Notes: a model not told the origin generated them from the letters alone. Positions 1,090-64,000 are shown, counted from the stretch's first letter. The stretch is 64,000 nt of DNA from Psammoneis japonica (GCA_008632985.1 QPGO01000205.1:1-64000), one strand, 5' to 3'. Numbers and translations: made by a program.

Positions 1090-4000
1090 GTCTGCCCAGA
1101 CATCAGTTGAGTCTGACATCCCTGGTCCACCACCTTTGACCGGGGTCTCTGGATGTCAAGGCAATCGCTTCTTCTCACAAAATCAATCATTGAGATCTCT
1201 CTCAGTTTGCAGCAACACTTTCTCCATGGACAAGTTTTGACATCTGCCACATTCATGTTGCATCCTCAAGCATTCACACTCTTGTCTCTGCACAAAGCAA
1301 CCCGTGCTGCCAAGTCTTTGACGGCCGGCTGTGGGTCAAGCCCCGGCTGATCTGTCTCAGTGGCCAAGCCCACAATGTGTCATTTTTGGGCATCTTGCAC
1401 ATCCCTTGGCTTGCCCTGAACAAAGAATTGATGGGGTTGAAAAGTCTGGCATGAGCGCAGCTTGACCTCCCCACACAAATGTCTTGGCAAGACAGAGGCG
1501 AAGAGCTGGCGAGCAATGGACAGAGGCAAAGCTCACTGGGTTCTGTGGAGAAGACCAACTGTGGCAATGACTTTGCACCCAATGTGTCTTTTTGCCACAG
1601 CTGCTGCTCTCAGGTCCTGGGGCCATGCCATCAGATTGAGCAAGGAAGCTCTCCCTCCTGCCGAGCCTCTCTTTTGTGTGTGCACTGCGCAGCTCCTTTT
1701 TGTTGCCTGCTGCCACTGTTCTTTTTCACAGCTGCTGCGCCGCTGTTTTTCTTTTTTTTTTAAACAGCACATGACATTTTGGCAGAGCAGAGGGCCAGCC
1801 ATGTGATGGACCACTGCACTCTTTGATGCCCCACGGCCAGCTGTCAAGTGCTTGAGGAGCAGCCACAAGCTGCTCCAGTTGCTTGGCAATGAGAGCCTGC
1901 TGCCACCAGCTGCCATGATCAGAATGCAGAGTGCAGCTGCCCTTGGTCTCCTAGACCAAGGAAAGTGTTTTGCTGAAGTGTGCACACATCCAAGCACTCC
2001 TGCACACTTTGGCACATCTGTCATTGCTCACCTCAAGATTGAAGACCACCGTGGCTGCTGCAATCTTTTTTGCAAGGTCCTCGTCATTTGGCACCTCACC
2101 TTCCTCTGCCACCAAAGCCTTCCAATGTTTGCCCAGAGGCTCACCATTGGAGGTTGCTTCACCCAAATGCTTGTGTTCAGGGAACTGTGGTTTGACACTG
2201 AGGGTGGCGGGAACCTTCTTGACGGGCACCACATCGCTGCTTCCTCATGCGTGGCTGCCGCCCACAGTGCTCTGAGAATGATGCTGTTGCAAATCTTGGT
2301 CATGCTGCTGCTTTTGCTTGGTCATGGTGGCATCACAGCACTCCTTGCACCACTTTTCCATCTGTTCCTGCCCAAGCTCCCTCACCAGCATGGAGGGACT
2401 GGATGCTGCATGCCCTGCCCATCCCACTCCATCTTGAGATTTGTCATCTGGTTCAACCACCACGGGGTTTTTTGGCAAGTCTTGCAAAGAGGGAGGAGCC
2501 TTGGCTTTGATGACTCAATGAGACAGACTGGCCAGAGAGCTGGCTTTCACTGTCTTTGAAGATGTCATCAATGACTCAGTCAGACTGAGAAGGAACGACT
2601 GCTTGAGCGAGGGGTGCACTTGCAGCAAGGTGATGGAAATTGAAAATGCACCATTGCATCAAAGATCATCAAAGGCATGCCTTGCACCTTGCATTCTCAT
2701 CATGCCAGATGGCTGGATGTCATTCTGACAGTTGTGTCCAACAAAATGAGGCCACAAACTGTGAAAGAAGAAAAATTGTGAGATGGCTCCAGCTCTCATG
2801 GAGAGGTGCATTGGGCTGCAGCCCCGATCTGTCATCCCAGCTTTTAACAACAATTGTGCCGGCACATTTTTTCCTCCTGCAACGCATTTTTGTGCCGACC
2901 AGAACCCTTTTTGCTTTGGACCCCCCAACCATTGTGAGAAAAGCCCACACTTTGCACTTCCCAGGTCTGACATGTTCCAGGATTGGGTGGACTTTTTCGT
3001 AACATTTTTCCAGCATTTCGAATGATCACACACAATGACAAAGCATTAAAAGGACATCTCTGATTTGTTTGCTCATCAAATAAAAAATTCAAATGTGCAA
3101 GTTCCTCCACCAGAATGCGAGCCTGAAATGCCCACGATGCTTCATTTGAGGACATGAGTGAGTCCACTGCTTCCCACGTGCAATGACTGGATTTTGATGG
3201 CGGCTTTGTTGTCGTCTTGTCATGAATGAGGAGCCTGCAGTGGGCACATGTCCATTGGCCTGCATCCACTGTGAAGAAGAAGACAAGAAGATCAAGAGGC
3301 CAAGACTGAACACTGTTGGAAAGTCCTTGAGCAATGTTGGGGGTTTGGTGACATCAGCATGACATCACACGCAGAGCTTCTTGGCACAAAATCCAACACA
3401 TTCAGGATCTGGATTGAGCCAGCTGTGCCTTGAATGGAGATGCACAGAAAGTGTAAAAAAAAAGGCAAGTGTGTGTTCGTGATGCTTGGCACCATGGCGT
3501 GCTCTAAACTTGAGCACACCTTTGCACCCCCACCTCCATTCCTGCATCTCCCCACTGCCGCCCTGCCCCGGATGCTGCTTCCATCAGTGGATGCACTGCA
3601 GCCACCAAATTTCCACTGAGTGTGTGCAATTCCTTCAATGATGAAGCATGTGGTGTTCTCATCAGACCCTCCACCCTTGTCCATGGTGAATTGTTCAGGA
3701 ACCTCCAGGGGCTCACCGACGCCCTCTGTGACCATGTCTGTCCTCTCCTTCCCTCCACCATTTTCGGCCCCAAATCTCTTCACAAGATTTTGCTGCTGTG
3801 TTGGAGTCCACCGTGGGAATTTCCAAGTCTCTGCTTCACACTCTAAAGGAGTCCTGCATCACTTCCTCACCACTGTTGGCACCGGCCCCTGCCAAATCAT
3901 GCAGCAAGTCTTTGCACTGGCCCTCCCCCTTGATTCTCTTTGGCTCTGCTTCTAAACTCATTGACTTCCCCAAGCCTGGGCACACCAAAGCCCACAAAAC

Positions 4001-7000
4001 TCTGCTCACCACCCTTTGTGAGATCAGCCAAGCCATCCGCAACAACCCAGTTGACTTTGCCATGGCCGCCATCCATCCAGCTGCCACCCCCTCTTCCTTC
4101 TCAGCCATGGATGTGACTGTCCCTTCTCCTCCCAATTTGTCAGTCGTGGATGTTGGCATCCTTCCCAGTGTGGTTGATGTCTTCAAGCCACACCACGACA
4201 TGGAGCGGAGCAAGTTTTGGGGCAGCTTGTGCCACAAGTTGCTGCCCAGTGCAGCTCTAACCCAGTGATCAACCGGCAAAGGGCGATGGTGTGATGGTGG
4301 TGGCATTGCATCATTCTGCTGTTGAAGCAAGGGCCAGAGGGTGAATGTGCACAAAAATCCTTGCCTCAGCAATGACAGAGATGAGGGGCATGCTTGCCAA
4401 ACTCAGAGCATCTGAAAGAACAATGTCCCCCCCTTTTCCATGTGTTCTTCCCCAAGGGAAGAGGCACAGCCACTTGCAGCTCCTTACAGAATTTGAAATG
4501 AATCTTTTCTTGCATCACGGCCCTTCCACACACAGAAGCAAGACCATGTCATTCCTCATGCTGTTTTGAACGTGTTGGTTTGGAACATTTTGAGAAAGAG
4601 AATGAACCACAGGTGTCACCCAGTCCTCTTCTTGATGACTCTTAAAAACTTGCTGCATGTCAAACACAACAGCCTTCAATTGGCCAGATTTGTCCTGGTA
4701 GACTCCCACATTCCACCACGCTGCATCACCATGACAGAAGCCCTTTTGTTGGAAGTCCTCCTGCAGTGTTCTGCCATGGCCCACAAAGTCTTCTGTGTTC
4801 ATTCTGGACATTGAAACCAGGGCATCAGCAAGGCTGTTTGCTCAATTGTTTGCACAATTCAAATGGTCTCATTCACTGGAGGAAGGTGTGAGCACACATC
4901 TTTCCACATGCGGGGTTCATGTTCTGCTGAGCATGCGGCATCCTTGAAGAAAAACTTCAATGCACCTGCAGCTCCCTTTGTGCCACCAGAAACAAGAAAA
5001 GCTCTGCCATCAGCGCCAGTGCCAAGATCTTCCCAGACAAAAAAAACTCTTTGCAGCATTGGAGATGCACAGCTCAAAATTCAAGGTTTCCAATGGCGGG
5101 GCCTTTTTCCAAGCAAACTTTGTTTCGCTGGCCAATTGCAACACTTTGGGCGAGCCTCCTTGCCGGGCGAGCATCATCTTCTTAATCACAGACAACAATG
5201 CCGCCAGGAGACTGGAGTCATCCCATTGAAAAATTGCCATTCCACAGAATGTGCAATCAAGGTCATCGACACCCAAATCCACTTCTCTGTCCTCAACTGA
5301 TTGTGGAACATCAGGAGACTGCAAGCACCCCAGACCTTTTGTCCAACTGGGAGTTTCAGGCAGCAGAGGAGACTCCACTTCATCCATCAATTCTGCACCC
5401 CCAAATGCAGTTGCCACTTCTTGTTTCTGCTTCACTGGAGTTGTGTGTGTGTCGGGTGACAGAAGTTGAGCAAGGGCAGCACGATGGTTGCTCTCTGGTT
5501 TGTCCAGCCGCCAGAAAATTTGCCATTGATTGTAACTTGCAAGTGTCGCAAAAGGATTGTCCACCCTAAAAATGCTGACAAGGTGCAGCAATTGGTCACA
5601 CACCTCACCCAAAATGTTTGGATGTGTCATTGCCCCGTTGCCGGGTTGCTTGCCTTCAATCATTCCAGCTGGATGCCCCCTTTGCGAGTGTCGCCATGAA
5701 ATCTGGTCGATTTCTCATTGCTTCAATTTCTTCATGAATTGTTGTCTCTCCTTTGATGCCAATCGAATCAATGACATCCATCATTGCGCACTCCACAAAC
5801 TTGTTGACTCCGCTTTCATTTGCAAAACTGCCAAGGTGGCATTTTTTGGCAGTTCGATTCCATGTGCTGTCCGCAGGAAAACCAGGCTCTTGTAAATCTA
5901 AAAGAGCTGAAAAGGAGGACATTTTCACAGTGGCTGGTTTATGCTGCTCATCTGTTGGCACGGACGGGTTGGATGTGAAATGAGTGGACTCCAAGATTGG
6001 CCCCATTTCCAGCAATCCATGTGAGAAGATTGATCCTTTCTGCTGCTGCTGCTCCTGCAGCAGCACAGGAACCATGCATTCTGGCATTGTTTCCACGGCA
6101 GAGCCAGCCGGAGCAACAGGGATGTGCTTGTTGAACAAAATGTTGCAGATGGCAGAGAGAATGCCCTCAGGCTCCAACATGTTGTTGAATCTATCCGCAT
6201 CAGGTGGAGTGCCAGCAACGCTGACCAAATCCTCTTTTTTCTTTATTCCGCACTTGATGAGCCCCACTGCAGCATCAATCGTGTCCTTGTCATCTCGCTC
6301 CTTCTCGTGGAGCAACAACACAACTTCTTTTACAAAGTCCAACCATCTTCCATTCCTCCATTGATCACCCACCCTGCCTTCAACACTTTCCTTGATCTGG
6401 GCGAGCCACCAATCACGATTGATGGTGCTTTCATCATCGGCGGTCATGGTGGTTTGTCTCCTCGCGCAGGGGCTTTTCCATTTTCTTGTCTGTGTCAGTG
6501 GTGTGTGGTGCTTGCACAAACTGTGTGTGCATGCTGACATGCTTTGTGACTGTGTGATGCAGCATCCAGATGGATTCTTCAAATTTTAAATGGAGCGAGA
6601 CACCTGAAAAGCCCATTGACAGGTCTTGCCACCACGGACCAGTGGTGTGTCATCTTTGCATTGAAAATGGCCCATTTGTTGCGTTTGACCACATTGTCGC
6701 AAATTTCCAAAAATCCATGTTTTGTTCACAATTGATTGTCGTTTTCCAAAAATTTAAGATGTCTCACATCCTCAGCATCAACGTTGATGAGAAGGATGCA
6801 TTTGGGTGAGAACCACATTGCCGTGGACATAAAAAATGTCATCAATTGCACCGTTGTCGAATGGTCAGTCATGGGAAGAAAATTTTGCAGGGCGTGCAAA
6901 CGTTCATGTCCAAATGTCTCATGTGCAGGAGCTCACATGCAGCAAGGTCCTACCTGTGGCTGGAAACTTGTCAAAATCATCATGGAGTTTGTCTTGTGCA

Positions 7001-8480
7001 TTGGTTTGTTCACACATGTCCTCTCTGCTCAGAAAGAACCACACACAGGATCAAAGACAGTGCAGATGGGCACTGCTGGGGCTTTGGTTTCATGGTGCTC
7101 ATCACAAACAATGCTGCAAATGACATTTGTCCCACTGTGTTCAGTGCTGAGCTAGAGCGGAAATGCCAATTGTGGCCATCATGCATGCATGCCCTCATGT
7201 TCAGCACAAAGTGATGCTGCACATGGTTGTGCAGATGTGTGACAAAAATTCTAACCACCAAATCTAGAGCCCCCTGCTCAGGAGTGGCCAGGGACAGTTT
7301 GCAAAAGAAGCAGCTGGTCAATTTGCACAGCTCGATGGTGGGCATGCTGTCAAGGATGCAGAGGACTTGATTGAGTGTCTTTTGTGCTGGCACAACATTT
7401 GATGGCTTTGCAAGGCACTGGAGAGGGCATGAACAAGCCCCAATGTGCATTTTGAAAGTGGATCAAGCCTCTGAATTGAGCACGCAACACCCTCACAAGA
7501 AGCACACAAACAAAAGCTCTGGGCAGCAGGGAACCTTTCAGCAGCTCAGACAACTTGTTGGCACTGGCTGACCCTGCTTTTGTGCACCAAAGAGCTGAGT
7601 TGGACCCCCAACCTTTCAGCGCCAAAGGACTCAATTGTTGTCAATGTGCAATGACAGAGAGCTCAAGAGAGTTGTCTTGACAGCTGGCCTGAGTCAGCTT
7701 GTTGACATTGACATGATGCCAAACTGTTTTGCAGGAGCTGCCTGCAAGAGGTTGCAACTCTCTTGGCATGCTCACAATGTGGTTTGACTTCCCAGCTGAT
7801 GCAAGACATGGAAATGGAGCTGGGAAAATTTCTCTGTTGTCAGTTGATGCAGCAGGTGTGAGACAGCTCCTGGCAGCACTGTTTCTTCAATCTTTTTGCT
7901 GACTGGAGTGCAACACGGGTTGTTGAAAAAACACAAGAGCTCCTCACTGCTGACAAAGTGGGGGGGGCACTGCCAATCATGCCAATGGCAGTGGCTGTCA
8001 TCATTCAAAAGAGGCTTGTGTGTGGAGAGAATGCAGTGTGAAAGAGGGGCAGAGTTCTGAGCCTTGATGCTGTTGCACAGACAAAATGGTGGCCACTTGA
8101 ACATTGACAAACACCAAACATCAACATCTCTTTGATGTGAAGCATGTGCGAAAGATTGTCAACTTGCCAAATGCCAGAAACATGAAGGATTTTACATGGG
8201 CACCGAAGTTTTCAGTTGAAGGGTTCTCCCTTGATTTGATGCCACTGCTTGAAGAGCTTGAGTGGGAGCTCAAATTCCTCTGAAAATGCAAGAGAGAAAG
8301 GAAGCAAGAAACTGCGTAAAATGGGGACAAACTGTTGTGCTGCTGTGGTGATCTGCAGGTCTTGAGCAGTCTTAAAAACAAGCTCTGTGTTGGCGAAGTG
8401 CAGCACAGCCCAGAAGTGGCAAAGAAGAGTGGGTGATGCAGAGGACTAGATTCTCCAGCAAAAGAAATGCCACCAACTTT
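1090..8480. repeat. TpA/CpG-depleted degenerate repeat island A
   Basis: TA and CG nearly absent, CA/TG abundant; ORFs in all frames are Cys/His-rich and Tyr-poor. Boundaries approximate. Confidence 0.8.
4515..6447 (-). pseudogene. Degenerate PD-(D/E)xK-like nuclease + protein-kinase-like gene (Crinkler/CR-effector-like architecture)
   Basis: Consecutive minus-strand ORF fragments: RPDFM...IEGKQPG (REase-like), DLGTGADGRAFLV (Gly loop), ALKFF (VAIK-like), GFCHGDAAWWN (catalytic-loop-like), VVFDM. Frameshifted, with probable Y->C/H changes. Confidence 0.6.
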
Positions 8481-9410
8481 ACCTTTGAGTTTGCCGACGG
8501 CCGGCCGGTAGATCTTTACCATGATATGCCAGGATGGATCAAGCTTTGATTGGGAGGAGCAGGACACACGTGGACTGTGAGCGTTCAGTAAGAATGAATA
8601 TCCACCCGACCTAGTTGCCGGAGTTTTGAATCAGCCGCAACAAGTTTTTGACAAATGTGTATTTAGCCTTTACAAAAGACTACTCTACTAAACGAGAACG
8701 AACATTTCCAACATTAAAGTATCATTTCAAATCAACATGCTCCACCTCTGGACTATGGCACGCATTTCCAAAACGATATCCTTGACCTAATCACTACACT
8801 GCTCAGTGCTTGAGCCCGCGTTAGTCCACCCTTGTGCGGCGACGACTCCAAAGGACACGTTTCGTAGTAAAACGCAAAACACGGGTCGAGCTGGAAGTGC
8901 TTTGGTCTTTTCGCAACGGGCAGTCGGCCATTTCCGGGAGTGACGAGGCAAAGGTACGGAACGAAGCACACCGACAAAGTAGCCCATGTTGAGTCCAATA
9001 CCGAGGTGTTGACGCTCCACCACGACGCGGTTTGCCACGTCCTCGAGTGTCAAGTGCTCGAGATGATGATTCGCGTTCGCTTTCAACGTCATGCCGTATA
9101 AGCAAATAAGCAACAACTCCTTTATGCCTCAGACGTGCTCCATCTGGTCGGAACTGTTGCTGTCGTTGCGACGGTGACACACCATTGTCCATGCGACGCA
9201 AGATCCGATTTCTGTTCCTCGAACTATCCCGGTTCATCTGCTCGAACTTGGATTATTTTCTTGCATCATACGGATGCGTTTTGTCCCCCCTCTTCCTTAT
9301 CGCTCCCATGTCTTCTTATGCTGATGCAAGACACTCTCAGACAATGGCCAATGACGTACTAGCGTTCCACTTCTGCTTCGGCTTGGTCTCTACAGTGCAG
9401 TTGTTTTGCA

Positions 9411-11423: not shown

Positions 11424-14428
<3,005 letters not shown>

Positions 14429-16687: not shown

Positions 16688-17089
16688 GGTGGAGTCTATC
16701 AACTTTTTATGCAACAATCACAACCCCGAAAAATCTGTTGGTATCTTTTCGCAGTCAATGTCTAAGTGACTGAATTAGTTGCAGGAAATTTCTTGATCCA
16801 ACTTCTATCTGCAGAGCATAGAACAATCTTCCACGAAAGCGTTATCTGATGTCCTATTCCCTGTGCTCAGCCTCACTACTTCCTTCGAGAGCGCTGTTTG
16901 TTGTTGTTGTCGACCTTGATTGGGGTGGCGAAGGCTTCTTTGCATCTCTGAATGCCTTCGTCGCGCGGAGGCACTTCTGGTATGGTCAGTGTGCATTTCT
17001 ACGAGATGGGGGATTCCTCCCTCCAAAATTTAAGAAAAGCTTCAATTACGAATAAATAGCATTCTTCTTTGTGGCTTAGATTTGACGAT

Positions 17090-19080: not shown

Positions 19081-19112
19081 GTCAGAGCTCGTAGTCTAGC
19101 TCGTTCGTTGAT

Positions 19113-48560: not shown

Positions 48561-48752
48561 GGAAGCTTTGCTCCTGTGTCTTTTGGCAATGTCCCGACAC
48601 CAAGGCCAGACACCTGTGGCTTGCGCCCACGTGCCTCGGCCTCCCAAGCCAGCATGTCTGGTGGTTTAATTTGGGTTTTGTGGTTTACCTCTCTGTGAGA
48701 GGACGTTGCATGTTTGGATGAATCGGCACCGTCATTGCCGTTTCGCGGGGAC

Positions 48753-48944
48753 CGAGTGAATTTGGATGGAGAAGCAAGAGAGGACAATGTTGCGATGGGT
48801 GACTGGTTGACATATATGAATCGAGTGGTGTTCTAACAACACTCTCACAATCTAATCAGGTTTAGGTTCGCATTAACAGTGTTACGACTTTCCATTAGAC
48901 GTAAGGTGTCGTGCTTGTTCTTTCGTTACATTGAGATTTATTCG
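48753..48944 (+). repeat. 3' LTR
   Basis: Follows the PPT and is followed by the TSD atcc (48945-48948); distal part retains TA. Confidence 0.93.
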
Positions 48945-49086
48945 ATCCAATCAGTCACGAATGGAGAGCAAGCGCGAACTCGTAAACTCGAGTCGTGCGG
49001 ACGGATGAGGAGTCGTCGTTCATCGTCGTTGGTCGCGTTCACATAATGTTGGTTGACTGCTGTGAAGCACTGCACGGCAAATCAAC

Positions 49087-50469: not shown

Positions 50470-50599
50470 CACGAATGCTGCGAATAGGAAGGTAAAATGT
50501 GTAAAACTATTCGTGCTATCCGTTTTGATAGTCACGCTCTAGGTCCATTCATAGTCAATGAGAGACTTCAAACTACTACTCTAAGTGCGAGCCGTAAAG

Positions 50600-53500
50600 A
50601 CCTGAACGATCACAGCAGTTCTGTGCCGCAGTTGGCACGCCCGCTGTGCAGCAGCAGGCTGTCCTCCTCCTTTGCGTTTGTGCCCTCCGTCCAATCTTCT
50701 GGTTGCGCTGAAGAACTTTGGGACAGCAGTTGCCAGGAGAGCAAAGCTGGGTTCGCTGTGCTGTGCCAAAGCAGGGGGGGGGGGCACACTTGCAAGGTGG
50801 GGGGCAAGCTTCCTCCAGAGAGTTTCTTCTTCTGTTGTTGTTGTTCCAAGTGCCTCCATGGTGATTTTCTCCTGGTGGGTGGTGGGTCTCAATGGTCTCG
50901 TTTCGTGGCTCTCATTGTTTGTTATTTTGGGCCACACAACAATCTCTGATCAAAGTTGGGGGCTTTTGCCCCAGTGGCTCAATGGCCTGCCTTGGCTCTT
51001 TGTGGTGGCTTGCACTTTTCTGCACCAGATGGTGCTGAGTTCACCTGCATGCTTTCAAATCCAGGCTTGATGCAGAATCTCCCAACCCACCATGGCACCT
51101 TTTTCCATCAATGACATTGATCTGTTCCCACCACAGTGTCACCATGGCTGACAATGTGCGCTTGAAAAAATGAAAGTGCCAAGAACAGAGTGGGCTTTTC
51201 TGGGCTTGAAGCAGTCAGGAAGTGCAAACAGGAAGTTGTTGGCAGCAACACGCCATGTGCGTTGGCACAAAAATCACACATGCAGAAAATTCATAAAGAA
51301 AAATGTTGAAATGCAGGGTTCAAGCCAATTTTTTTCTTTCCCGTGCTCCTCCTCTTGGTGACAAAGCCTCAAGGAATTTTCTCTAAAAAAAAATTGGCAC
51401 TTTGCATTGTTGCTTTTATGTGAGCAACATGATTTGGCACATCTCATGTCCAAAGGTCTGTTTTCAAAGTTTCGTTGACACTTCCGCAGTGATGCCACAG
51501 CATGATGAAAAATTTTCAAACATGGAGTTAAGGTGTGCGCAAAGGACATTGTTGTGTTTGTCATCAAAAAGCAAGCTCACAAAGTGTCAACTGCTGTGAC
51601 CCAAATTGACTCCTTGAGGTCATGGCTCATCATTTGCAAAGCATGTGAAAAGCACAATGAATTGATTTTCTGCACATGAGTTTGCACCAGAAATTGGCCC
51701 AAACCAAAAATTTCAAGCTTGTGTCCCCTGCACATGGCTTGTGGGTGTGGGAGAAAAATGGTTGAACAATTCAGTTGTCAAATGCAAAGTTCCCCCCAAG
51801 CATGAATTCCTCAGAGATGCAGATCAGGTGTTGAACAAAAAGACAGGGCTGGTGTCATCACACATCACACACCTCTGAGCAATCCAGTGTGGGTGGGCAC
51901 AAAGTTGCCAGCTTCTTGCTGCTCACAAAAAATGCTGCTCTTTTGCTGCCACAGTGCAGTGCACCTGAAACCACATGACCAGCAGCAACCATGAGGCCAA
52001 GGCTTGAGATGTCACAGCAGCCACAAACACACAGCCGCTCAGTCTGTGCCTTTTGCTGCTTCATGATGCAAGTGGAGATAAACAAGTTGTCTTTGCTGCA
52101 CACTTTCATCCCCTTGCCTTTCTTTTTTTCTCCTCATGACAAGCCACTTTTGTGCTGCTGCCACAAAGCTAAAAGATTTTTTTCTTGGAGAAGAGTTGGC
52201 TGGCTGGGTGTCTTGTGTGGAGCAGTTTTTGAGAAAACAGGAGAAGCACCAGCAGCTCCAAATCCCTGAGCTGGAAAGTGCACAATGAGGGAGAGTTGTG
52301 GAACAAGCCAAGTCTTTTTGCTGTCTGCCAAGAAAGCTCCCCCACACCCCAGCACAACTTTTGCAAAAACCCTGCTGGCACTCCCCCTGCATCAAGAATG
52401 GCTGCAGCACATCTAAAAATGGCTGCAGGCTTGCCGAGGGAGTGCAGAAGTCCATTTCCCATGGAACAGAGCACACTGAGCCCATGTGGACTGACGGATC
52501 TTCTTGTTCATCCGATGGACACACAGTTGTCAGCCATGGGGCTGCATCACCTTTTTTGCTTGCTCTGATGTTGGCTGGGACACACGTCACCAAAAAGACA
52601 GCAGGCCACTCAAGTGGCTCCACTCATTTTGAAGGCAATGCTGAGTTCTCCAAACCAAGTGCCGCTGTCTTGGCCACAATTTATTGTGCAGGATGCAGTG
52701 CAAACTCCATGTGCATGTCTCTGTTTTTCTGGAAGGCTTGCTCAATGATCTTGAGGTCATAAATTTTGAGCATTTTTGTTGCCACTTTTCTGCTGATTGT
52801 CACAAGTGCATTGTGCACCAACCTTTGACATGCTTGCATGATCAACCAGCTCTTGCATCACTCCTCCATTGATGCAAAGCCACCAACATCAACAGTGTCA
52901 CAGCACAGGCAGGATTTGAGGCTGCAGCATCAGCAAAACAATGCTGGCCTCCTTTGGGCACCACACACTGAGAGTCATTTTGATGTGATGCACCCAGCTT
53001 CTTTTTGCATGTGTGTGGCTGTGTGCGACAGCCAAGTGGTGTGTGGCTGTGCACTGACACTGCTGACATGCTGGAGTTTGACACTTGTTTCAGACTGGCT
53101 TTGAGAGTTTTGATGTTCCACTCAGCTTCTTTTTGCATTTGTGGCTCTGTGCCACAGCCAATTGGTGTGCAGCCATGCACTGATGCTGCTGACATGCTGG
53201 AGTTTGGCAATTGTTTCAGACCAACTTTGATGTGGGCAAAAGCAGCAGCAGCCAGCACTGAGGGAAGACACTTGCGTGCAAGTTGCTCAAGGTGAGGAGA
53301 TCCATCAAAATCAGTCCCCGGCAAAGATGCCACCTTGTTTGCCTTCTTGCTTGCTCTCCCACAACACATGGAAGCACAGCAAACCAAGAGACCTCCTGAG
53401 CAGGTGGCCAAACTTGCAACCACTCCATGAAAAGCAACTGGCACTGCTTGGCAAAGCTCTCAAGAATTTTTCAATGCTCGAGGATGTGCAAGTGGCCCCA

Positions 53501-54480
53501 TGATGGCTGCAAAAAAGGCAGCACACAGGACCACTCATTGAACCCAGCAAAAAAAGTTTCCTTTGACTGCCAAGCTTCTTTTGCCCACAGATGATCTTGA
53601 GATGGAAGGAGGAGCTGCACTGCAGATTGTTTTGCCTTGTGCAAATGATGCACATCATGCCCCTGCTGAACAAACCAGGAGCCTGTCTTGAGCTGTGAGG
53701 AGAGCACTTGGGTCATTGTCATTGCACAAATGGTTGAGTTTGGCAGCACCAGCAAACTGGGGGAAGTGTTGGCACCCCAAACAATGAGAGCTTGTCAAAA
53801 CCAAAACTGCCTCATGAGAGGATTGACAACACCCACCAACAAGAGTGTGCTCTCTGGAGATGAGGTGCAAAGTGGTTCTTCTCAAGCAAAGCCTGGTGGT
53901 GACTTTTGCACCTGTGCAAATTTGGAAATGTGCACGTGCAGGAAAAAACAACAAGCAGGACTTTGGAGCATCAGCCACCCTTGCAGAGAGAATGCACAGC
54001 AAACAGTGCCAAAGCTCACCTCTGGCACTTGCCAGGATCTGTGCCCACAATGGCTGCAGCACTGTCCTTGGAGCACTTGTTGGGGCAGCTGTCCTCAGCA
54101 TTGTGTGCCTCTGCACCACACTTGGTGTGCCCGCTGCCCTCTGTCCAACCCTCTTGTTGTGCTGAAGAGCTGTGGGACAACAGCTGCTGGGAGCACAAGT
54201 TGTGTTCACTGGGCTGTGCCAAAGTGTGGGGTGCCTCCGTGCCCATGCTTCAGTGGATCCCAATGATGCTGTTTTATGTCCCTCAGTGTCTTGCCTCTTT
54301 TTTTTTTTGCCACACAGCAACATCTGATCAAAAGCAGGGGCTTTTGCCGCAGCGGCTCAAAATGGCCGGCACCTTTGTTCTTGAGCTTTGGCAGCTTTTG
54401 TGTCTGGTTCCTGATGAGGTCTCCTCTTTCCTGTTGCACCAAGCGCGGAACCCGAAGCTCTTGCTGAAGCGGTCGGGAAG
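50600..54480 (-). repeat. TpA/CpG-depleted island F containing two copies of the unidentified repeat (50600-51070 resembles 54100-54480)
   Basis: Example: gctgaagaactttgggacagcag...ctgtgccaaag versus gctgaagagctgtgggacaacag...ctgtgccaaag. Confidence 0.78.
52969..53230. repeat. Approximately 130-bp tandem duplication
   Basis: cagcttctttttgcat...ctgctgacatgctggagtttg...tgtttcagac occurs twice. Confidence 0.85.
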
Positions 54481-54682
54481 AGAATAACGGAAAGTTGTAG
54501 GCAGGGACGGGTGCAAGAGAGAAAAGTTCTAAGAGTACCTGTAGCTACTTGTTACCGGGGGTATTATATGATATGCAATATGCAGTACTAGCTAGCTTCT
54601 TAGAGAAAATCATTTGGCTGTTACCTGCTGGCTAGCTGATTCTCAGAGCTCGACAATGAAACAGCAATCCACGGTGAAGTTA

Positions 54683-55546
54683 CTATTTGTCATCTCCCTT
54701 GTCTTTCTTACCGCCGAAGATTTTGCCGGCAACCTTTTTCGTCACGTCTCCAAATTTATAATCGTCCTTTCCTGTAAAGCTCTTTACCGCCTTTTTGGCG
54801 ACATCACCGACACGATAATTCGAGTACTCTTCGTCGCCCAAGTAGTCCTTCATCCATTTCTTTCTGCGTTCGTTGATCTCGCGAGTAACATCACCAACCT
54901 CGTAGGTATCCTTGTTGGCGAACTTTGCAAGTCGATTCTTGACTCGGCCCTTGAACTCTCTAGCCAAGTCTCCCACCTCGTATTCTTCCTTTCCACAAAA
55001 GTTCGCAACCGTTTTTTTGACTCGAGCGTCAATCTCAACACTCAAGTCGCCGAGTTCGTACTCATCCTTTCCGGTAACTTCAAGCGCCATTTCCTTGCTC
55101 GTCTCTTTGACCAACTTGGCAATGTCACCCAGCTCGTACTCTTCCTTTCCACGCAAATTAGCAACCTTCTTCTTCATCCGAGCATCCATGTCCTTTGTAA
55201 TGCCAGCCACTTTGCCAGAAACGTCAACTCCTTTGGATTTGATATCCTGTACGAGTTGGCTACTCGCAAGCTTGGAGAGCTGAATTCGCAATTCATCCCA
55301 TTCATCATCTTCCACAAGGTCTTCAATGACATCTTCCTCCTCCTCCTGTTCCGTCGATGATGTGGTGTCGCTCGATTCCTCGACCTTTGCATCCTCTTCA
55401 GCCGACGATGAAGTGTCGCTGTATAAGCGCGACGAACAATGAGGAGCGACACTACAAGTCAAAGACGGTCGATGGAACGTAGGGACTACTCCAAAGGCAG
55501 CAGTAGATGCCACCAAGCAGGCAAGCAGTAGGCCGAGATTCTTCAT
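54683..55546 (-). CDS. Plastid-targeted protein with repeated GK(D/E)EY(E/K)(L/V/F)GD motifs
   Basis: Signal peptide plus ASAFAP-like STAAF motif and Ser-rich transit peptide; six repeats of about 22-24 aa. Confidence 0.8.
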   Translation of the reverse strand: MKNLGLLLACLVASTAAFGVVPTFHRPSLTCSVAPHCSSRLYSDTSSSAEEDAKVEESSDTTSSTEQEEEEDVIEDLVEDDEWDELRIQLSKLASSQLVQDIKSKGVDVSGKVAGITKDMDARMKKKVANLRGKEEYELGDIAKLVKETSKEMALEVTGKDEYELGDLSVEIDARVKKTVANFCGKEEYEVGDLAREFKGRVKNRLAKFANKDTYEVGDVTREINERRKKWMKDYLGDEEYSNYRVGDVAKKAVKSFTGKDDYKFGDVTKKVAGKIFGGKKDKGDDK

Positions 55547-55869
55547 GGCGAAAACGACTTTTTGTTAAGAGAAGGAACGCACCATGCACTTCAAATGTGT
55601 CAAAACAGCCTGGTCGTACCTTGCTTTCTTGAACCAAAACTTGACGCCAAAGATATATCGAATGTTCATTTTCCCGCTTCCTGCGCGCCATCCGCGCCGT
55701 CACGTGTTCCGCCAATCCCGTTTCTGCAGCTATGGGGCCCAACGTCATGCTTCCACGAGTAATCACAACCCCCCATTTTTTACCAAAATGCAACTCCAGC
55801 CGACTAATGTTTGTCTAACAAGAAGTTCCCAACAAGTTTTGGGGTCGCAAGTGTTAGGTTTGGTTGGCA

Positions 55870-58800
55870 ATAGAGACGTCACCAAAAATCGTCCCGCCCC
55901 GGTGCTTTCACGTGCAACAAAGGCACCCCACAAAAAGTTGGCTCCATTTCCAAATGCCCAACACCATGAACAATGCATGCCTGGTGCATTCTTGCAAGAC
56001 ACCAGTTCAAGGCATTCACACAACGAGCTGATGGATGGCAAGACGATTGGAGTTTCTGAATTTTTTTGTGCTGGAAACTTCGTGCGCACTGCACGCATCA
56101 TCGCTGAAAAACGGCGACATGACGGTGGTGCATTGTCACAATGACAGCAATGACAGCAACGTGTCCCAGAGTCTTTTGTCATCACAGACATTTGGTTCAT
56201 CAAGTTCAAGAATGCATCCAGTCATGACAGTCCCAGGGAGCAATCTCCGCTCGAAAGCAAAACATTGTCGCACCAATGCCGAGCTCTGTTTCCGACCTGC
56301 CGCTGTTGTGCATTCATCATTGAACAGTTGAGACTTCGTCAGGGGGACTTTCTTTGCATGTTCATGTTCTAAACAGTGTGATCTGTCATCATGACAAGTG
56401 CCCATTGCAAAGTCGTCCTGCATGAGCTTGAGAAAAATGTCGTCATCATCGTTGGCGTCGACAGCAATTTGTCGCGCAAATCACAAAAAATGCACGACTG
56501 TTGTCTGTCTGACATTGTGCATTGCACCACTGTGTGCTCATTGTGCGCATGCCTTAAAGAGCAGGAGACCAACAATGCTTGCACCTCAGGCATTTTGTGG
56601 CTCTAGCCGGGGTCAAAGTCCAGCCAGTTCTTCCAAAAAATTCGAGTGGAGCGGGTCATGCGGGATTCAAGACACATGACTCGGGGTGCAATGGACCCTT
56701 TCTCAACAAAGAGATGGCCAATGACATCAACACAAAGCACATTTTATGGCAACAGTCTTCTTTGAAAGTCATCATTGACATTGTGACAACTGTGTTTGAC
56801 CTGTTTCATGTTTCAAATGGACGAAGCAATCCATGAAAACACATTTGCAAGCCACACTTTTCCATTTTCAGAATTGACAATTGCGTCTCTGCCAACAATC
56901 TAGCAAACACACAAGCAAGGGGGCACTTCCATCACCTGACTTTGTTCTTCCACAGGAGAGTGTCATCAATGGGTGACTTTTTCAACGTTGTTTGACTGCT
57001 TCTTTTGAACAGTGCGCCAACTTCACTCTGCATTTTCACTCCAAAATCCACCCCATGCCTCACCCTCTCCCACTCAAAAACACTGGCTGATCGCATTGCA
57101 GTTGCTTCATCAAAGTCTTGAAAAATGGTCCTCTTGTCATTGGCGCTGCTGAAACGGGTTTGACGATGGGAGTGCAACATTGGATTCGTCGATGAGCTCA
57201 CACGACAATTGACGCTGTGAAAATTGGCTGCATCTGCATGACAGTTGGGTGAGACAACAAGTGGCAAGACTTTGGCACAACAAGAGCTCCGCTTCAATTG
57301 TGCGTCACTTGCCTTTGCATGTCCGCTGGCTTTTGCTCTCAGTGGGTGTCAAAAATCCGGCAAATGAGTGGTTGATGAAGACTCGGTGCGTGACATGGCG
57401 TCATGAATGACTGAATTGTCATGTTTGTCAATGGCTCCCCACAAAATCAAAATCATGGAGAACACACTTAGATTCCTGTCCAACAGATGCCAATTGATTG
57501 CATGCCAAATGCGTTTTTGCAGAGTCAAAGGTTTGGACAACTTTCTTGGCATTGCAATCATCACCATCATTGGCACGAGTTCTGATCAAATTCCCTGCAA
57601 CAGCACCGCGGTGACAGTCTGCATGCTCATCAGGAGTGCGGGTTGGGACCCAAAGCAGCACGGGCTTGGTTTGAAACAACACACTTTTGGCTGGCTTTGC
57701 TTTTCTCAGACTGCTTTGACGCAACAACCCTGACACCACGCAAGCCTCACAGCAGACCCACAATGAGCATCTCAGACCTTGCTTGTGAGCACCAGTTGTG
57801 CAACAGCATCAAAGAAGTGCAGGCTGTGCAGAGCTTGATCTTGCGCCGGCAGGTTCTGTGAGCACCCCACCCCACAACAAAAGAAAGAGGAGCACACAGC
57901 AGCCCTGACAAAAACCACTTCAACATGCACTTGTGTTTGAACAACCATGGTCATGTTCTGGCCAGCCATCAAGAGTCGACAAGCAACACACACAACACAG
58001 AGCATCAACAACAAAAGGGCAACACACGCAAGATTTGAGCTTGCATCAATGAAGACAATGACCTTGAAAGAAGACTTGTGATTTGGAGCAAGACAACATG
58101 CCTGGCTGAGTGGCAAAAACACCAGCTGCACACACCACAGCTGCCAGTGTCGGAGAGCACTGTGTGGTGGCAAGCAGTGGCAGCAGCATCTGCTGTCTGC
58201 TGTCTCTGTGCACTGAGGAGTGCATCTGCTGTCAGGGTGTGTTGTGGCAAGCAGCAAGAGCAGTGCATTGATCTGAGGCTGGCAAAAGTGGCTCTGGCTC
58301 CTGATCCATGCTTGCATCATGGGAGCACATTTTGATGCCAGATCCCAAAGGCAAGGACACATGAGCTGGATTGCTGGCAATGGCAGCACTTCCACCCTGC
58401 TTTGCCTGTGCAAAAGCTCCAAAAAAGGAGCCCCAAGTGGCCAAGGTTGCAAACACCACATGTGGGAGATCCCAAAAATTGGGCAAGTCACTCAAGAAGT
58501 GTGTCAGCTTTTAAGAAGTGTGTCGACTTTTAAGCTCTCTCTGCTTTTGCACAAGCAGCCTTGTGCAGTGCCTTGCAAGCAAGTCATCGAGCTTCTCTTT
58601 GTTTGATCTTGAAGAGTTGGTTTCCACTGTGGTGTTGTGTCAATGGTCTTGAGCAAGCAAGAATTTCATGCCAGACTGCAGTGCTTCTTGAAATCCTCGG
58701 TGCACTTGTGTTTCTCAAATGAAGTGCAGCCCCCTTCATTGTGCAGCCACACTTCTGGCTGCTTTGCATGATGCGTTTGCTCTGCTCCTGCAGCTGCTCT

Positions 58801-61800
58801 TTGGATGGTGCACAAGCAGGATTTTTTCCAAAGATGCTTGGAAACAACTTTCACGCCTGCACACATTTCACAACAAAAAGCATGGAGTGCAACATGCAAG
58901 TCCCAAGAAAAACAACAAACTCCTTCAACTTTGATCATTTTGACAATCAAAAGGCAAGTGCACACAAAAAAACAAAAGTTTTGGGTGCATTTGCCTTTCA
59001 ATTTGGGGAAAAAATCATTTTGAAGGAGTTCATTGTGCCAAATGAAAAAATGGCCCAATGATGGATCGCGCACATCTGTGCATCACCCAGAGCTGGAACA
59101 GGCCCAGGAGACTTGTGCACATGCAAAAACCTTTTTTTATGAGATTTTTGATGTTCGTTTCCATTGAACACAAAAAACACATTTGGGAGGAAACTGCACA
59201 TGCCCAATCAAATTGTTTGACTCTCACACTTCACTGTGGTGAAATTTTAGTCACAGACACTGGGGCAGGTTGAGTCCTCTGGTGGTTTGCAGTGACCAAA
59301 GACTTGCTCCAGACTCAGGTGCACACATGCACACAAAAAATGCTCGTTTTTGCATGAAATGCATGGTCCCAACTTGTGGCGCCATTCTCGTTGAACGTTG
59401 CAAGATGATGATTTTCAAATGTGTGATGGCATGGGCACATGCAGAACGGTCTTGTGCGTGTGCCCATGTCAATTTTTTTTTAGGGCGCATTCAATTTTTG
59501 GATGTTGAATGGCACCGTAAGATGTGGGCTTGATTTTTCACCAGCTTCAATGAAATTTTTATTTGCCTGTGTTGAGCTTTTGTTGCAATTGAGTGACAAG
59601 CTTCAATGGCTGCATGGGGGTCAACACTGGTGGAGTGTCTGCTGACACAAGGCACCAAAATGGAGGATGAAAGAAAGCCACGACACTTGTGCGGCAAGCA
59701 GCTCCCATTCTGATGGCAACCCATTTCATTTCTTGCACCTCCATTCACTGGGCAAGGACTGCATCTCTGAAAGCAGAAAAGGTGGTGAGTCACAATCCTC
59801 TTCTTCCTTTCTCACCCCTCATTTCTCTTGCAATGTCACATGCTCTCTGGTGCTGCCACCCCATGCGCAGCAGATGAAGTGTCCAGAGTGCAGCAAGAGC
59901 AGCCTTCAATTGGTGCTCTTTGTCATTGTTGGCATCCAGAGGGAGTGCTTGTGTCATTTGGCCATCAACTGGAGCTTTGTTTTTGACTTGGCAATGCCAT
60001 TGCCACACCATTCAAAGTGGCAACATCTCTGCTGGAGCCAGCAGCCAAAGTGGGTGCATTCCCCAAAGACAAAACAGGAGCAGCGTCTTGCCTTGAGGTC
60101 TGTTTGTTCTGCCCAGTGCTGGATTTGTGCCTGTGCGGCCAATGCCTTTGCAGCAAGGCATGTGTTTGTTCATTGCTTTGACACTCTTTTGTGTCAGCGT
60201 CTGCAGGTCAGCACAAGCCATTGGACTGATTCAACAAATTGCAAAAAAAAGTTGTGCAGCTGCTTTGTGAGTCAAGGAGCAAACATCAAGAATTTGATTC
60301 AATCCCCCCCTGCGTGTTTTCCCAAAGAAATGCATTTGTCAATTTCAACCTTTAAGACTGAATTAAATCACAAAAAAATTTTGATGGCAAATTTGGCATC
60401 ATTTTTTATGAAATTGGATGGTGCACAAAAATTCTTGTTGTCAGATGCAAAAAAGGGGCAAGTGTGTGCCACCCAAGTCAGGAACAAGTTCAAACATGCT
60501 GACAGCAGAATCCTTTTCTGTGGCAACATCATGGCCAGGTGGTCCAAGGCACATGTGCAGCCCATTTGACCATGGTGGCAGTTGCTGCCAGGAAAAGGAA
60601 AAAACACATGTGCACAACACATCTGGAGCTTCATCTGTCCTGCATTTTGCATGGCATCAGCACAGTTGCGAGAGCAGCTGGATCTAATCCAGAACAATGG
60701 GAGCAGCTTGGCTCAGCCAGCTTGAGAGTGCAGCATGCCACAGAGAAAGCCAAGGTGGCACATTTTGTGCAGGGCACCAGCACAGCTGTGAGAGTGTTCC
60801 CACAAATGAGGACCCATCAGCTGGGTCTGATCAAGAACAATGGGGGGCAGCTTGGCTCAAACAGTGTGGGTGCACAGCATGGAGAAAGCCAAGGTGATCA
60901 AAGTTGAAAGGAACCATGTGCAGGATGGCAGAGTGGAGCCATGGACCTCTCCAGTTCATCAGTGTTCAACTGTTTAAGCTGCTTCTCCACAGCCTCTTTG
61001 AAGCTGGCATGCAGGGTGCAGAACGCTTTGCTGCTTCGGCAAGAATCTCCCTTGCCAGTCATTTTGCAGTGATGTTCTGAAGCAATCCTGAAGACAACTT
61101 CTCCTGAGAAAATTTCCTTGAATGCATGATCCCTCATTTTGATCACACAGGAGAGGTGCTGCAGCAACCTGCAGTCTTGCAGCAGTTGTGAGAGGAAACT
61201 CTGGATCAATGTTGTTGCTTTTGTCCGGCAACTGCAACAACAGAATCTTGTGCAACAAGTGCTTTTTGAATTGCCAAGATGGCCTCATCAGCCTCGTCCA
61301 TTTTGTGGTCACTGGCTGGATGATGCAAGAAGAAAATCTTTTCTCGAGGCAATGCATGTGTGACAGGTCTCACACCTGCCATGTGACAAAACATTTTTGC
61401 AAAGAGACCAAAACAAAGAAAGCGCAACAACAAGTGGCAAACATCAACAGGAGCTTGCCCTTGCACTGCACTCATCTCTTCAGAGGTGAGAACCATTGTG
61501 CAAGTTCTGCAGAGATGCACACTCACAACTGGAAGAGTGCTTTGCGCCTTGCTCTCAATCATCAACTGTCGGTTGCCGCTGGAGTGCTTGTGGACAATGC
61601 CTTTCAGGAATGCATGACAGCTTTTTGGCATCATGCCAAAAAGGATCAATGTAGATTGGCTTGCTGTCAGGAAGAGGGTGCCATTTGTGATTGTTCGTGC
61701 GCCCGCTTTTCCAGCTCTTGCCACGCTTCTCATGAAAACAATGAAGGCAGCTCCTCTTGGCTGGCAGACGGGCTCTGCCTCTCATCCCACTTTTGGACTT

Positions 61801-61950
61801 CCTTTTTTGGCTTGAGAATGGCAACACGCTGCTCATCCATCACCTTGTTTTCATTCCATCGCTTCTGCTTCTCTTTCGGCATGGTTGCGACTTGCTCAAC
61901 GCGAAGATGAAATGTGCTTCTACATGCATGACATTGTGGCATGTAACACA
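55870..61950. repeat. TpA/CpG-depleted degenerate repeat island G
   Basis: Composition; fragmented coding-like remnants not assignable by eye. Boundaries approximate. Confidence 0.75.
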
Positions 61951-62783: not shown

Positions 62784-64000
62784 ATGGCTGCCATCGATCC
62801 AGATGTTCTGGCGAAGGCGTTTGCCGATGCAATGGCCGCCAACGCCGCGGCGACCACTCCTCCGGCTCCAACCAAGCCGTTGCGTGGTGGAATTCACCCA
62901 ACCCACGGGGTTTACATTGGTGGTTCCAAACTCAACAACAACTGCGAACAATCCAACGATAGAACCTGCCGATTCGCCTCTCAGCGCCGTCATCCCAAGG
63001 CTCTCGACTCGATAGAACGATCTCTCCGCGATCAACAAGCTTCCGCAATGACTTCCAAGTTCAACGGTCGACTTGAGATTTCGGACGGTCCCATCAACGA
63101 GCTTGACAAGGACCATTTCGTCAAGACTGTTCGAGATCTAGTAGAAGCCCACGGTCAGCAGACGTTCTACCATGTCAAGGACAGCGACGACAAGGTTCAA
63201 CATATCTTCGACCATCTTCACGAGTTCACTGTGACCGATCTCGTGAACGAGTACACGGTTGGGAAAACAGCTGCCGATGACACCAAGTACGACGAGATCG
63301 AGCTCGACGACATCGGGCTCTCTCAACTTCTCGTTCACTCAAGAATCACTAATGCCTTTCGCGAGAAAATCGAGACCAAGTTCAACCATCTTTCGGACTG
63401 CCAAGACTACCCTGGATCTGTTCTCTTCATGATGGCTCTCGACACTTGCAATGCTAGCGCTCTAACGGACATTGAGACGGCTAAGAAGCAGCTAGAAGAC
63501 CTTAGTTTGGTCAACTGTCCCGGCGAGGATTGCACGGACTTTGCTGCCGAAGCTCTTTGCATCGTGAAAATTGTGCAGACCGACTGCGCGCTTCCGGCAA
63601 ACACAAGCTCCAAGCTGCTCCACAAGATCTCCTCCACGTCCTCTGAATGCTTCAATCGCCGAGTCTACAACAAGCTCGACGACGTCAAGGCTATGGAACG
63701 CAAGTGCCGCCTCAAGAATCCTGCTGACATCGTGTCCGATAGCGATTGCAGAACGCTCGGACCAGTCGGCATCATTGCGTGGATTCAAGAGCAACACAAC
63801 GAACTCGTGAAGGATGGGGAATGGCCTGCATTAGTCGCCAAGCTACCCGAGAGCAATCTTTCGACTACGGATGACCCTGGGAAGACGAAGCACTGTTATG
63901 GTTGCGGTCTCGAGGGGTGCACCAAGAAGACGTGTCCGAAGTGCAACGCCAAACCGCCGCGCGACGATCCTCCTCCCAATCCGCCGCCTGCAGCCGACCC
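62784..64000 (+). mobile_element. Gag ORF of a second diatom Copia-like retrotransposon (5' part, runs off the right edge)
   Basis: Stop-free frame from ATG 62784 to the window end, absent from the ORF track: MAAIDPDVLAK...PGSVLFMMALD..CPGED..GEWPAL..CYGCGLEGCTKKTCP (zinc-knuckle-like). Confidence 0.8.

Follow-up and report, generated by a model that had tools for sequence, protein, structure and literature searches.

The subject of this report is a stretch of 64,000 nucleotides (nt) from the Psammoneis japonica assembly (GCA_008632985.1, QPGO01000205.1:1-64000), hereafter the window, in which seven islands have almost lost the dinucleotide TpA (TA); one of them takes in most of a Ty1/Copia retrotransposon (42092-48942, plus strand). 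Once the elements were in place, a process acting on DNA turned about 90-95% of TpA into TpG or CpA; it hit each strand independently, in sharply bounded domains that may end inside an element. The best explanation that we can offer is TpA hypermutation of the kind described in Bigelowiella natans, carried out by a host system through deamination of adenine. We are confident of this explanation at the level of the phenomenon; taken whole, it is a serious but tentative proposal. By its coding content, the window is diatom nuclear DNA: an open reading frame (ORF) for a CDC48-type AAA ATPase (11647-13299) shares 76-89% identity with proteins for which every named source is a diatom (among them Fistulifera, Cylindrotheca, Amphora, Epithemia, Cyclotella, Nitzschia, and Chaetoceros).

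Observed/expected (o/e) dinucleotide ratios were scanned in 500-nt windows, and island limits were refined from the positions of TA. The TA ratio is bimodal, at 0.00-0.16 in islands or about 0.3-0.9 in genic DNA, and intermediate values are nearly absent. The refined islands lie at 1086-8192, 17078-19091, 22377-23973, 32747-34298, 40337-48812, 50596-54484, and 55872-61920 (islands 1 to 7). Pooled, they span 30,684 nt (GC 50%) and hold 114 TA, with o/e of 0.06 for TA, 0.41 for CG, 1.71 for CA, and 1.68 for TG; the 33,316 nt outside (GC 48%) hold 1173 TA, with 0.53, 0.99, 1.17, and 1.14 for the same dinucleotides. At the outside density, simple arithmetic would give the islands about 1080 TA; the depletion is real and far beyond chance. 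The asymmetry between TG and CA is at most 0.08 in each island. A previous description of this DNA, made from its letters alone (the sequence-only reading), had reported about seven islands almost lacking TA amid genes with normal TA, and these hold up; its coordinates are off by no more than about 300 nt. The edges are fuzzy in four places (8193-8509, 22070-22376, 34299-34764, and 40010-40336) and abrupt elsewhere: TA recurs every 12 nt or so through 50595 and next appears only at 50923, and at the right edge of island 6 the last island TA is at 54275, with dense TA again from 54485. Within islands, 62 gaps of at least 150 nt are free of TA.

The Copia element is recognised from its paired long terminal repeats (LTRs), its gag-pol region, and its reverse transcriptase (RT) domain. 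The 5' LTR (42092-42282, plus strand) lies wholly in the mutated domain and retains two TA, both in CTAA; in the 3' LTR (48752-48942, plus strand), TA is absent from the first 61 nt, and the outer 130 nt retain the ancestral state with 11 TA. Each repeat is 191 nt long, and the pair is 92.7% identical. A longer pair, ending at 42419 and 49085, came from a self-BLAST in purine/pyrimidine code, but we distrust this extension, as nucleotide similarity stops at 42282 and 48942. The degenerate gag-pol (42799-48586, plus strand) has frame breaks near 44553 and at 45710-45863 and is collinear with 1400-residue Copia polyproteins in tblastn searches with four unmutated relatives as queries. Its longest open stretch of pol (46352-48463, plus strand) runs for 703 codons without a frameshift and holds the RT (RVT_2, Pfam E 2e-12), whose catalytic YVDD reads CVDD; from this substitution and the frame breaks, the element is evidently dead. 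Its TA o/e is about 0.1 while CG is still at 0.6-0.9, and 41 TA are present against about 310 that would be expected, by arithmetic, in 6.7 kb at the TA density of its relatives.

The LTRs of a single insertion start out identical, and this pair now differs at 14 positions, equivalent to 13 events. In nine of these, the 3' LTR has TA where the 5' LTR has TG (four) or CA (five); the others are two cases of CG against CA, one of TG against CA in which both copies are derived, and one transversion. Over the outer 130 nt, the 5' copy is changed at 9 of 11 TA, 2 of 6 CG, and 0 of 96 other positions (Fisher p 1.5e-11). Because the LTRs start identical yet differ at nine TA sites, the TA changes post-date insertion. 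TA was lost far faster than ordinary substitution would have removed it, and faster than CpG decayed; the LTR contrast places the rate of TA erasure orders of magnitude above background, as an estimate from the scar and not a rate per generation.

The coding sequence was analysed by comparing the stretch 46352-48463 with 30 relatives of 58-65% identity at 411 conserved columns. Conserved Tyr columns are changed at 18 of 19, nine to Cys (TAY to TGY) and nine to His (TAY to CAY); conserved Ile columns are changed at 10 of 19 (four Met, four Thr, two Val) and conserved Arg columns at 9 of 29, where the replacements include His, Gln, and Cys, to which CpG decay leads. The 70 changed residues comprise 16 single TA-to-TG changes, 16 single TA-to-CA changes, 12 CpG transitions, 12 single changes of other kinds, and 14 replacements in which two or three nucleotides differ. 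Protein searches gave no copy above 66% identity, and thus no unmutated master copy of the same family, so the polarity of change rests on the conserved residues and the LTR pair. Both the codons and the LTRs bear out the claim in the sequence-only reading that TA gave way to TG or CA in the Copia, and the erasure is mutation of the element, not native poverty in TA. It is scarcely credible that the islands are natively TA-poor or that they arose by classical repeat-induced point mutation (RIP) or CpG decay, and for the Copia this is already contradicted. TA is indeed under-represented even outside the islands (0.53), and CpG decay is present inside them. However, RIP and the decay of 5-methylcytosine (5mC) are C-to-T processes that create or spare TpA; here TA is removed, not created, as the sequence-only reading had argued when it set both aside. 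Moreover, GC stays at about 50%, the conversion of conserved Tyr, Ile, Leu, and Val codons can be seen directly, and native relatives have TA o/e of 0.5-0.9. Among 80 related Copia loci from metagenomes, TA o/e ranges from 0.26 to 0.92 with a median of 0.69 and CG is about 1, so the Copia is not natively TA-free. CpG decay is also separable from TA loss: two of these loci (L051 and L052) have CG o/e of 0.03-0.06 with TA at 0.38-0.47, and such heavy CpG decay without TA erasure suggests that not all diatoms have the TA-erasing process.

Along pol, TG and CA outcomes are split 16:16 and fall into 17 runs against 17.0 expected; the choice of strand is random and uncoordinated. An even split without runs excludes editing of sense RNA before reverse transcription, and random strand choice argues against a processive single-strand mechanism. 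We give next to no credence to A-to-I editing of transposon transcripts by an ADAR- or ADAT-like enzyme, fixed by reverse transcription and insertion, even though RNA adenosine deaminases typically make A-to-G changes and prefer a 5' U, and the one identified target is a retrotransposon. ADAR-type editing affects only the transcribed strand, edits AA as well, and favours a 3' G. What we observe is a 16:16 split in which T-to-C on the sense strand is as frequent as A-to-G, undepleted AA, and a 3' preference in the order T>C>G>A (see below). Editing before insertion cannot make the LTRs of one insertion differ at nine TA sites; an island edge cuts the 3' LTR, and islands without detectable retroelement coding are also affected. 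The B. natans preprint, which raises the 5' U preference of RNA adenosine deaminases in its Discussion, reports DNA virus inserts as the targets in that organism (bioRxiv 10.64898/2026.01.13.699255).

The bases flanking TA govern its fate. Survival, taken as the ratio of island to outside tetranucleotide counts, is 0.54 for TTAA, 0.25 for CTAA, 0.15 for CTAG, 0.11 for ATAA, 0.10 for GTAA, 0.05 for CTAC, 0.04 for GTAC, 0.04 for ATAG, 0.006 for ATAC, and 0 for ATAT. These values fit a multiplicative model of independent hits on each strand, with modelled per-strand survival of about 0.73 for TAA, 0.38 for TAG, about 0.2 for TAC, and less than 0.1 for TAT. Sensitivity by 3' base follows the order TAT > TAC > TAG >> TAA, the last being largely spared; stated for the opposite strand, the same rule is T-to-C at ATA > GTA > CTA >> TTA. 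The Copia and the other islands show the bias separately and so replicate it: TAA makes up 45% of surviving half-sites in the Copia and 53% in the other islands (baseline 22-24%), and TAT makes up 6% and 13% (baseline 27-31%).

AA is not depleted (o/e 1.24 in islands, 1.17 outside), and this contradicts WA-to-WG patch synthesis by a Pol eta-like polymerase, a mechanism that the sequence-only reading had entertained. The same ratio bears on a wider proposal, that the islands are a long-run equilibrium and a by-product of heterochromatin replication or repair with no dedicated system, the candidates being Pol eta patch synthesis or an over-eager T:G-to-C:G repair that accompanies 5mC, similar to very short patch (VSP) repair and the scarcity of CTAG. 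We regard this as improbable. In its favour, VSP repair and CTAG loss in Escherichia coli set a precedent for the erasure of a TA-containing word by biased repair, CpG decay is found in the same islands, and all the changes are transitions. On the other side, the AA ratio departs from the WA-to-WG rule, a young element is already saturated (9/11 TA, 2/6 CpG, and 0/96 other positions), TA o/e is bimodal with scarcely any intermediate windows, and L051 and L052 have CpG decay without TA loss. The T:G glycosylases that guard CpG act on T before G, not on T before A. The rate reported in the B. natans preprint, 1000-fold above background and episodic, also speaks against a by-product.

One edge, between 48812 and 48813, falls inside the 3' LTR and so cuts through a repeat instead of tracking its border. 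A WD40-repeat ORF starts at 49066, about 250 nt downstream, and this suggests that proximity to a gene, and not the border of a repeat, sets the limit of the domain here. Throughout the window the domains are bounded and the genes spared; one domain holds the Copia, and three share old repeats.

We considered whether sequencing or assembly had produced the pattern, with modified bases miscalled or repeats left unpolished so that TA was read as TG or CA. The islands do coincide with repeats, where polishing is weakest. A public read run (X1, whose platform is not on record) contains 70% of sampled words of 45000-54900, and contigs were built straight from its reads. One contig covers 52041-55755 with three differing letters and another covers 48968-51718 with seven; each crosses an edge between island 6 and a gene, is unbroken over 2.7-3.7 kb, and has an equal word depth of 55.6-61.2 on both sides. 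The island sequence is thus reproduced from reads, a check akin to the one with Illumina reads proposed by the sequence-only reading, and an assembler or long-read artefact is ruled out. A strand-dependent miscall would have yielded two half-depth versions and broken contigs; instead, every site reads uniformly as TG or as CA, and pol is open for 703 codons without a frameshift. Two metagenome contigs and one database protein, from other elements, bear the scar as well, and an artefact of any kind is highly improbable. In X1, the Copia breaks into 1825 contig pieces with a summed depth of 850-1680 and hence recurs many times, and island 6 is spanned by individual contigs whose depth matches that of the genes beside it. 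Copies of the Copia differ by 291 transitions against 42 transversions; among the 40 of 333 differing places that were listed, we see CG/TG, CG/CA, and paired TG/CA but no clear TA-bearing copy. Paired TG/CA differences are expected if a TA (or CG) of the common ancestor was hit separately in each copy. A second run from the same sample (X2) gave long contigs only over 49057-50484 and 54546-55580, at depths of 270 and 2009, along with two fragments of some 70-80 nt that lie in island 7.

The two metagenome contigs with TA-poor windows (L005 and L070; 2 of the 80 loci) are 67-70% identical to the window Copia at the nucleotide level. Conserved Tyr is changed at 10 of 12 sites in L005 (six His, four Cys) and at all five in L070, always to Cys or His; the control loci L059 and L061 are changed at 0 of 5 sites each. 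In both, the pol part is TA-poor and TA is normal beyond it. The database protein (P0141) has changes at 15 of 17 conserved Tyr sites and a Tyr content of 0.3%, against a mean of 3.6% (SD 0.5) for 240 retrieved proteins including P0141; its choices between Cys and His agree with those of the window Copia at only 7 of 13 sites, which indicates that it was mutated independently.

Two further observations touch on these sequences. The TA-poor domain of L005 (1-1100) and that of L070 (1-700) both stop near the 3' end of pol, with normal TA downstream. This recalls the escape of the outer 3' LTR in the window, and either a recurring property of the process or a chimeric assembly could account for it. 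P0026, a Copia polyprotein of intact length (1405 residues), has a Tyr content of 1.7% and Cys or His at 9 of 25 conserved Tyr sites, mainly in its N-terminal half; it may have been mutated only in part, or its assembly may be chimeric.

We suggest that the islands record the same kind of process as the TpA-only A-to-G/T-to-C hypermutation of silent integrated viruses in B. natans. The process would belong to a host system that is aimed at silenced foreign or repeated DNA and is drawn there by the state of the chromatin, not by duplicated sequence. The diatom islands look like the saturated end state of what is apparently the same process in another lineage of the stramenopile-alveolate-rhizarian (SAR) group. 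Our best guess for the chemistry is an enzyme that deaminates the adenine of 5'-TA, whichever strand it lies on, with the resulting hypoxanthine copied as G. As for the outcome in the sequence, no new stops arise and TAA and TAG are destroyed, leaving dead elements open in all six frames and their proteins ruined by Tyr-to-Cys/His and Ile-to-Met/Thr changes. The counts are in line with this: TAA and TAG together number 173 in the islands and 1075 outside, TGA is roughly level (1396 and 1229), and ORFs of at least 100 codons are denser in the islands (3.65/kb against 2.52/kb). The loss of TA removes TAA and TAG and creates no stops, so the islands are open in six frames and rich in long ORFs.

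Deamination of adenine specifically, for which the sequence-only reading had offered a TadA/ADAT-like enzyme as a candidate, is possible, but we would not insist on it. In its favour, tRNA adenosine deaminases act on A34, which follows an invariant U33. An ADAT2 homologue was proposed, though untested there, as the enzyme in B. natans (bioRxiv 10.64898/2026.01.13.699255). Several points weigh against our proposal, in its chemistry or in its wider claims. TA is its own reverse complement, so A-to-G at TA is indistinguishable from T-to-C at TA. The sequence-only reading had invoked an A-to-G process at 5'-TA on both DNA strands of transposable elements (TEs); action on DNA, on both strands, with equal TG and CA, stands, and A-to-G is one of two equivalent readings of the change. 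Single-strand deaminases such as APOBECs leave strand-coordinated clusters, unlike the random strand choice seen here. ADAR favours a 3' G and the natural site of TadA is UACG; the order T>C>G>A fits neither. The only natural ADAT2 reported to deaminate DNA adenine, that of amphioxus, prefers GAA and hairpin or single-stranded DNA according to the available text (PMC10354150), a preference that would sit poorly with TA in duplex DNA. As for the wider claims, that the system is one of defence and is guided by chromatin is something we infer. The Copia is the only recognisable TE in the seven islands, which bears on the targeting of transposons or viruses and leaves the implication of the sequence-only reading that all seven islands are TEs without confirmation. 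X1 may be the source sample of the assembly and therefore no independent individual. Finally, L005 and L070 are short contigs that could be chimeric at the junction between TA-poor and TA-normal DNA.

The thymine of TpA could be the target instead. A TET/JBP-type dioxygenase would convert this T, on both strands of silent DNA, to 5-hydroxymethyluracil (5hmU) or to a more highly oxidised or glycosylated derivative, and would thereby set an epigenetic mark analogous to CpG methylation. Now and then such a T would be copied or repaired as C, giving T-to-C at TA that is read as TA-to-CA or TA-to-TG. A symmetric duplex mark on a palindromic TA would explain the equal and independent strand hits and the sharp domains, and a marked domain of heterochromatin should also show CpG decay, as the islands do. 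Mispairing with G is a property of oxidised thymines such as 5-formyluracil. We know of no thymine modification in diatoms or chlorarachniophytes, however, and TC is not clearly depleted (o/e 0.98 in islands and 1.16 outside, a difference that coding versus non-coding composition could explain). In the available text on dinoflagellates, 5hmU is described as preferentially at TA and TC, deposited via TET/JBP homologues, enriched on repeats, and helping to silence TEs (PMC11572971). In the B. natans preprint, activity is episodic (11 of 15 lines, 2-45 mutations each), which to us suggests an induced mutator rather than a constitutive mark. On balance, a thymine target seems to us unlikely, though it has to be taken seriously.

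A broader idea would accommodate either base. TpA might be a second "epigenetic dinucleotide" in SAR protists, with a conserved writer acting on the palindromic TpA, on both strands, in silent foreign DNA. The diatom islands, the Bigelowiella virus inserts, and perhaps dinoflagellate 5hmU at TpA on repeats would then be its footprints, and the TA-to-TG/CA scar would be to this mark as CpG decay is to 5mC. We consider the idea doubtful. Were the writer a duplex-DNA adenine deaminase, as in our preferred explanation, it would be the first natural A:T-to-G:C DNA editor with a defined TAB motif (B being any base except A).

The islands apart from the Copia are best called repeat relics, for which a viral origin is possible; old dispersed repeats are common to three islands. 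Island 1 (1086-8192, 7.1 kb) has 30 TA and 112 CG, with TG and CA nearly equal at 768 and 767, and its right edge is fuzzy to about 8509. Island 2 (17078-19091) has 7 TA and 50 CG. Island 3 (22377-23973) has a single TA and a left flank (22070-22376) of intermediate TA density; within it, an old repeat (23130-23326) is related to 58912-59104 in island 7 (72% nucleotide identity, 85% in purine/pyrimidine code). Island 4 (32747-34298, fuzzy on the right to about 34764) lies in the spacer between two tandem copies of a leucine-rich-repeat (LRR) gene. Upstream of the Copia, and adjoining it, lies a TA-poor repeat relic (40337-42091), of which 40962-41848 is related to 53253-54148 in island 6 (65% nucleotide identity over 607 columns, 79% over 949 columns in purine/pyrimidine code). 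Island 6 (50596-54484), between ORFs ending at 50469 and starting at 54596, has 11 TA and 38 CG (CG o/e 0.03-0.3), a tandem repeat at 52861-53230 (two to three units of about 130 nt each, 82-85% identical to one another), and weak terminal repeats (50681-50771 and 54135-54224, 80%). Island 7 (55872-61920) has 19 TA and 112 CG; parts of it recur many times in X1, with a summed word depth of 900-1290 over 56008-57341 against about 60 on neighbouring contigs.

A Pfam scan of 127 island ORFs of at least 90 codons gave no credible match outside the Copia RVT_2; matches to Adeno_100, Frizzled, DUF6807, and DUF5435 were discarded because they scored under the curated cut-offs. Sequence-atlas searches with the ORFs 5659-6585 (minus strand, island 1) and 32749-33762 (plus strand, island 4) gave no usable match, and tblastn with Copia relatives found no Copia similarity in the other islands. 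No deaminase family was matched in Pfam among 24 long window ORFs and the 127 island ORFs. Outside the islands, a 347-nt TA-free stretch (24502-24849) has CpG o/e of about 1.0, and about 0.03 gaps of at least 300 nt would be expected at the outside TA density. It overlaps an ORF (24540-25421) without a Pfam match and may be a mini-island or an unusual coding stretch. The LRR genes flanking island 4 belong to a tandem duplication of about 4 kb (28145-32154 and 34742-38704) with 88% nucleotide identity and 94% in purine/pyrimidine code.

These results place in diatoms, a major and genetically tractable algal group, a TpA-only hypermutation that has so far been the subject of one chlorarachniophyte preprint. 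Contigs from environmental diatoms carry the scar too. The system may have an early origin in SAR lineages or have arisen in them repeatedly, and a genome defence of which little is known could be widely distributed. They add a testable anatomy, namely the order TAT>TAC>TAG>>TAA, random strands, edges that cut elements, and independence from CpG decay. The enzyme could be found by comparing species with and without the scar, and an enzyme from nature that turns A:T into G:C in duplex DNA would be of interest for base editing. The scar also has practical effects. The six-frame openness of the islands invites spurious gene models, Pfam detection of TA-erased TEs collapses, and dating by LTR divergence is inflated, since 12 of the 13 differences behind the 92.7% identity of our pair are TA or CG events.

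Among known systems, ascomycete RIP resembles the present process in its wholesale both-strand transitions in bounded repeated or foreign DNA, which leave dead elements and can be detected by a dinucleotide index. RIP, however, is C-to-T (CpA to TpA in Neurospora), raises TpA, lowers GC, and makes stops, whereas here TA is removed, GC is kept (50% against 48% outside), Tyr codons are lost, and no stops are made. RIP is further marked by its dependence on duplication, its premeiotic timing, and a RID-type enzyme. Diatoms do possess DNMT4, which the available text of a recent study describes as related to RID and of unknown function (PMC9998398). CpG decay from 5mC likewise converts a palindromic pyrimidine-purine dinucleotide to TG or CA in silent DNA and is present in the same islands (CG o/e 0.41), but it acts on CG, not TA, is slower here (2/6 CG against 9/11 TA), and is separable, as in L051 and L052. 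In animals, APOBEC3 (G-to-A) and ADAR (A-to-G) riddle retroelements with one class of transition at a preferred dinucleotide. They act on single-stranded cDNA or RNA before integration and produce coordinated, one-strand changes, unlike the random, both-strand changes after integration that we observe. VSP repair and CTAG scarcity in enterobacteria turn a TA-containing word into CA or TG words through a repair bias; that system is bacterial, word-specific, genome-wide, and mild, whereas here all TA contexts except TAA are affected, inside domains only. Dinoflagellate 5hmU, as far as the accessible text describes it (PMC11572971), is a TpA-preferring base-level system on repeats in a SAR lineage and is tied to TE silencing; it is a modification and not a mutation pattern, and a link to the diatom islands is conjecture.

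The closest parallel is B. natans (Mettrop et al., bioRxiv 10.64898/2026.01.13.699255), for which the preprint describes TpA-specific hypermutation of integrated nucleocytoplasmic large DNA virus (NCLDV) and virophage DNA. Of the 302 nuclear mutations in its mutation-accumulation lines, 231 lay within two stretches of integrated viral DNA, a rate of about 6e-7 per site per generation and roughly 1000 times background; 230 of the 231 were A-to-G or T-to-C, with all GC-biased ones at TpA, and hypermutation occurred in only 11 of 15 lines, with 2-45 mutations each. The preprint also lists 324 TpA-poor coding sequences enriched for reverse transcriptase and DDE domains, and 124 clusters poor in TpA and rich in CpA and TpG (bioRxiv 10.64898/2026.01.13.699255). 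A term search of its main text finds none of "diatom", "stramenopile", "trinucleotide", or "context", and its Results and Discussion contain no edge anatomy or strand-run test. In the literature that we searched, which leaves most subscription journals outside its coverage, there is no description of the TA-to-TG/CA pattern in diatoms, and the available text of Maumus 2009 (PMC2806351) and Hoguin 2023 (PMC9998398) does not mention it. The novelty supposed by the sequence-only reading is thus overstated, since the preprint already gives the signature for B. natans; ours is not the first description of the kind, but the first in diatoms to come out of this search. The two cases differ in that the host here is a diatom (stramenopile) and B. 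natans a chlorarachniophyte (rhizarian), that we see the finished scar and not new mutations, that the depletion is far deeper here (TA o/e 0.06 against a Rho of 0.45 given for their NCLDV region), and that our identified target is an LTR retrotransposon with accompanying CpG decay. They are alike in that A-to-G/T-to-C change is confined to TpA and gives TpG or CpA by strand, in discrete regions (foreign DNA in B. natans) far above the background rate, and leaves in the long run a footprint of low TpA and high CpA and TpG, in which most cluster genes of B. natans lack annotation according to the preprint. To this parallel, the window adds the random choice of strand, the 3'-base rule, and an edge within an LTR.

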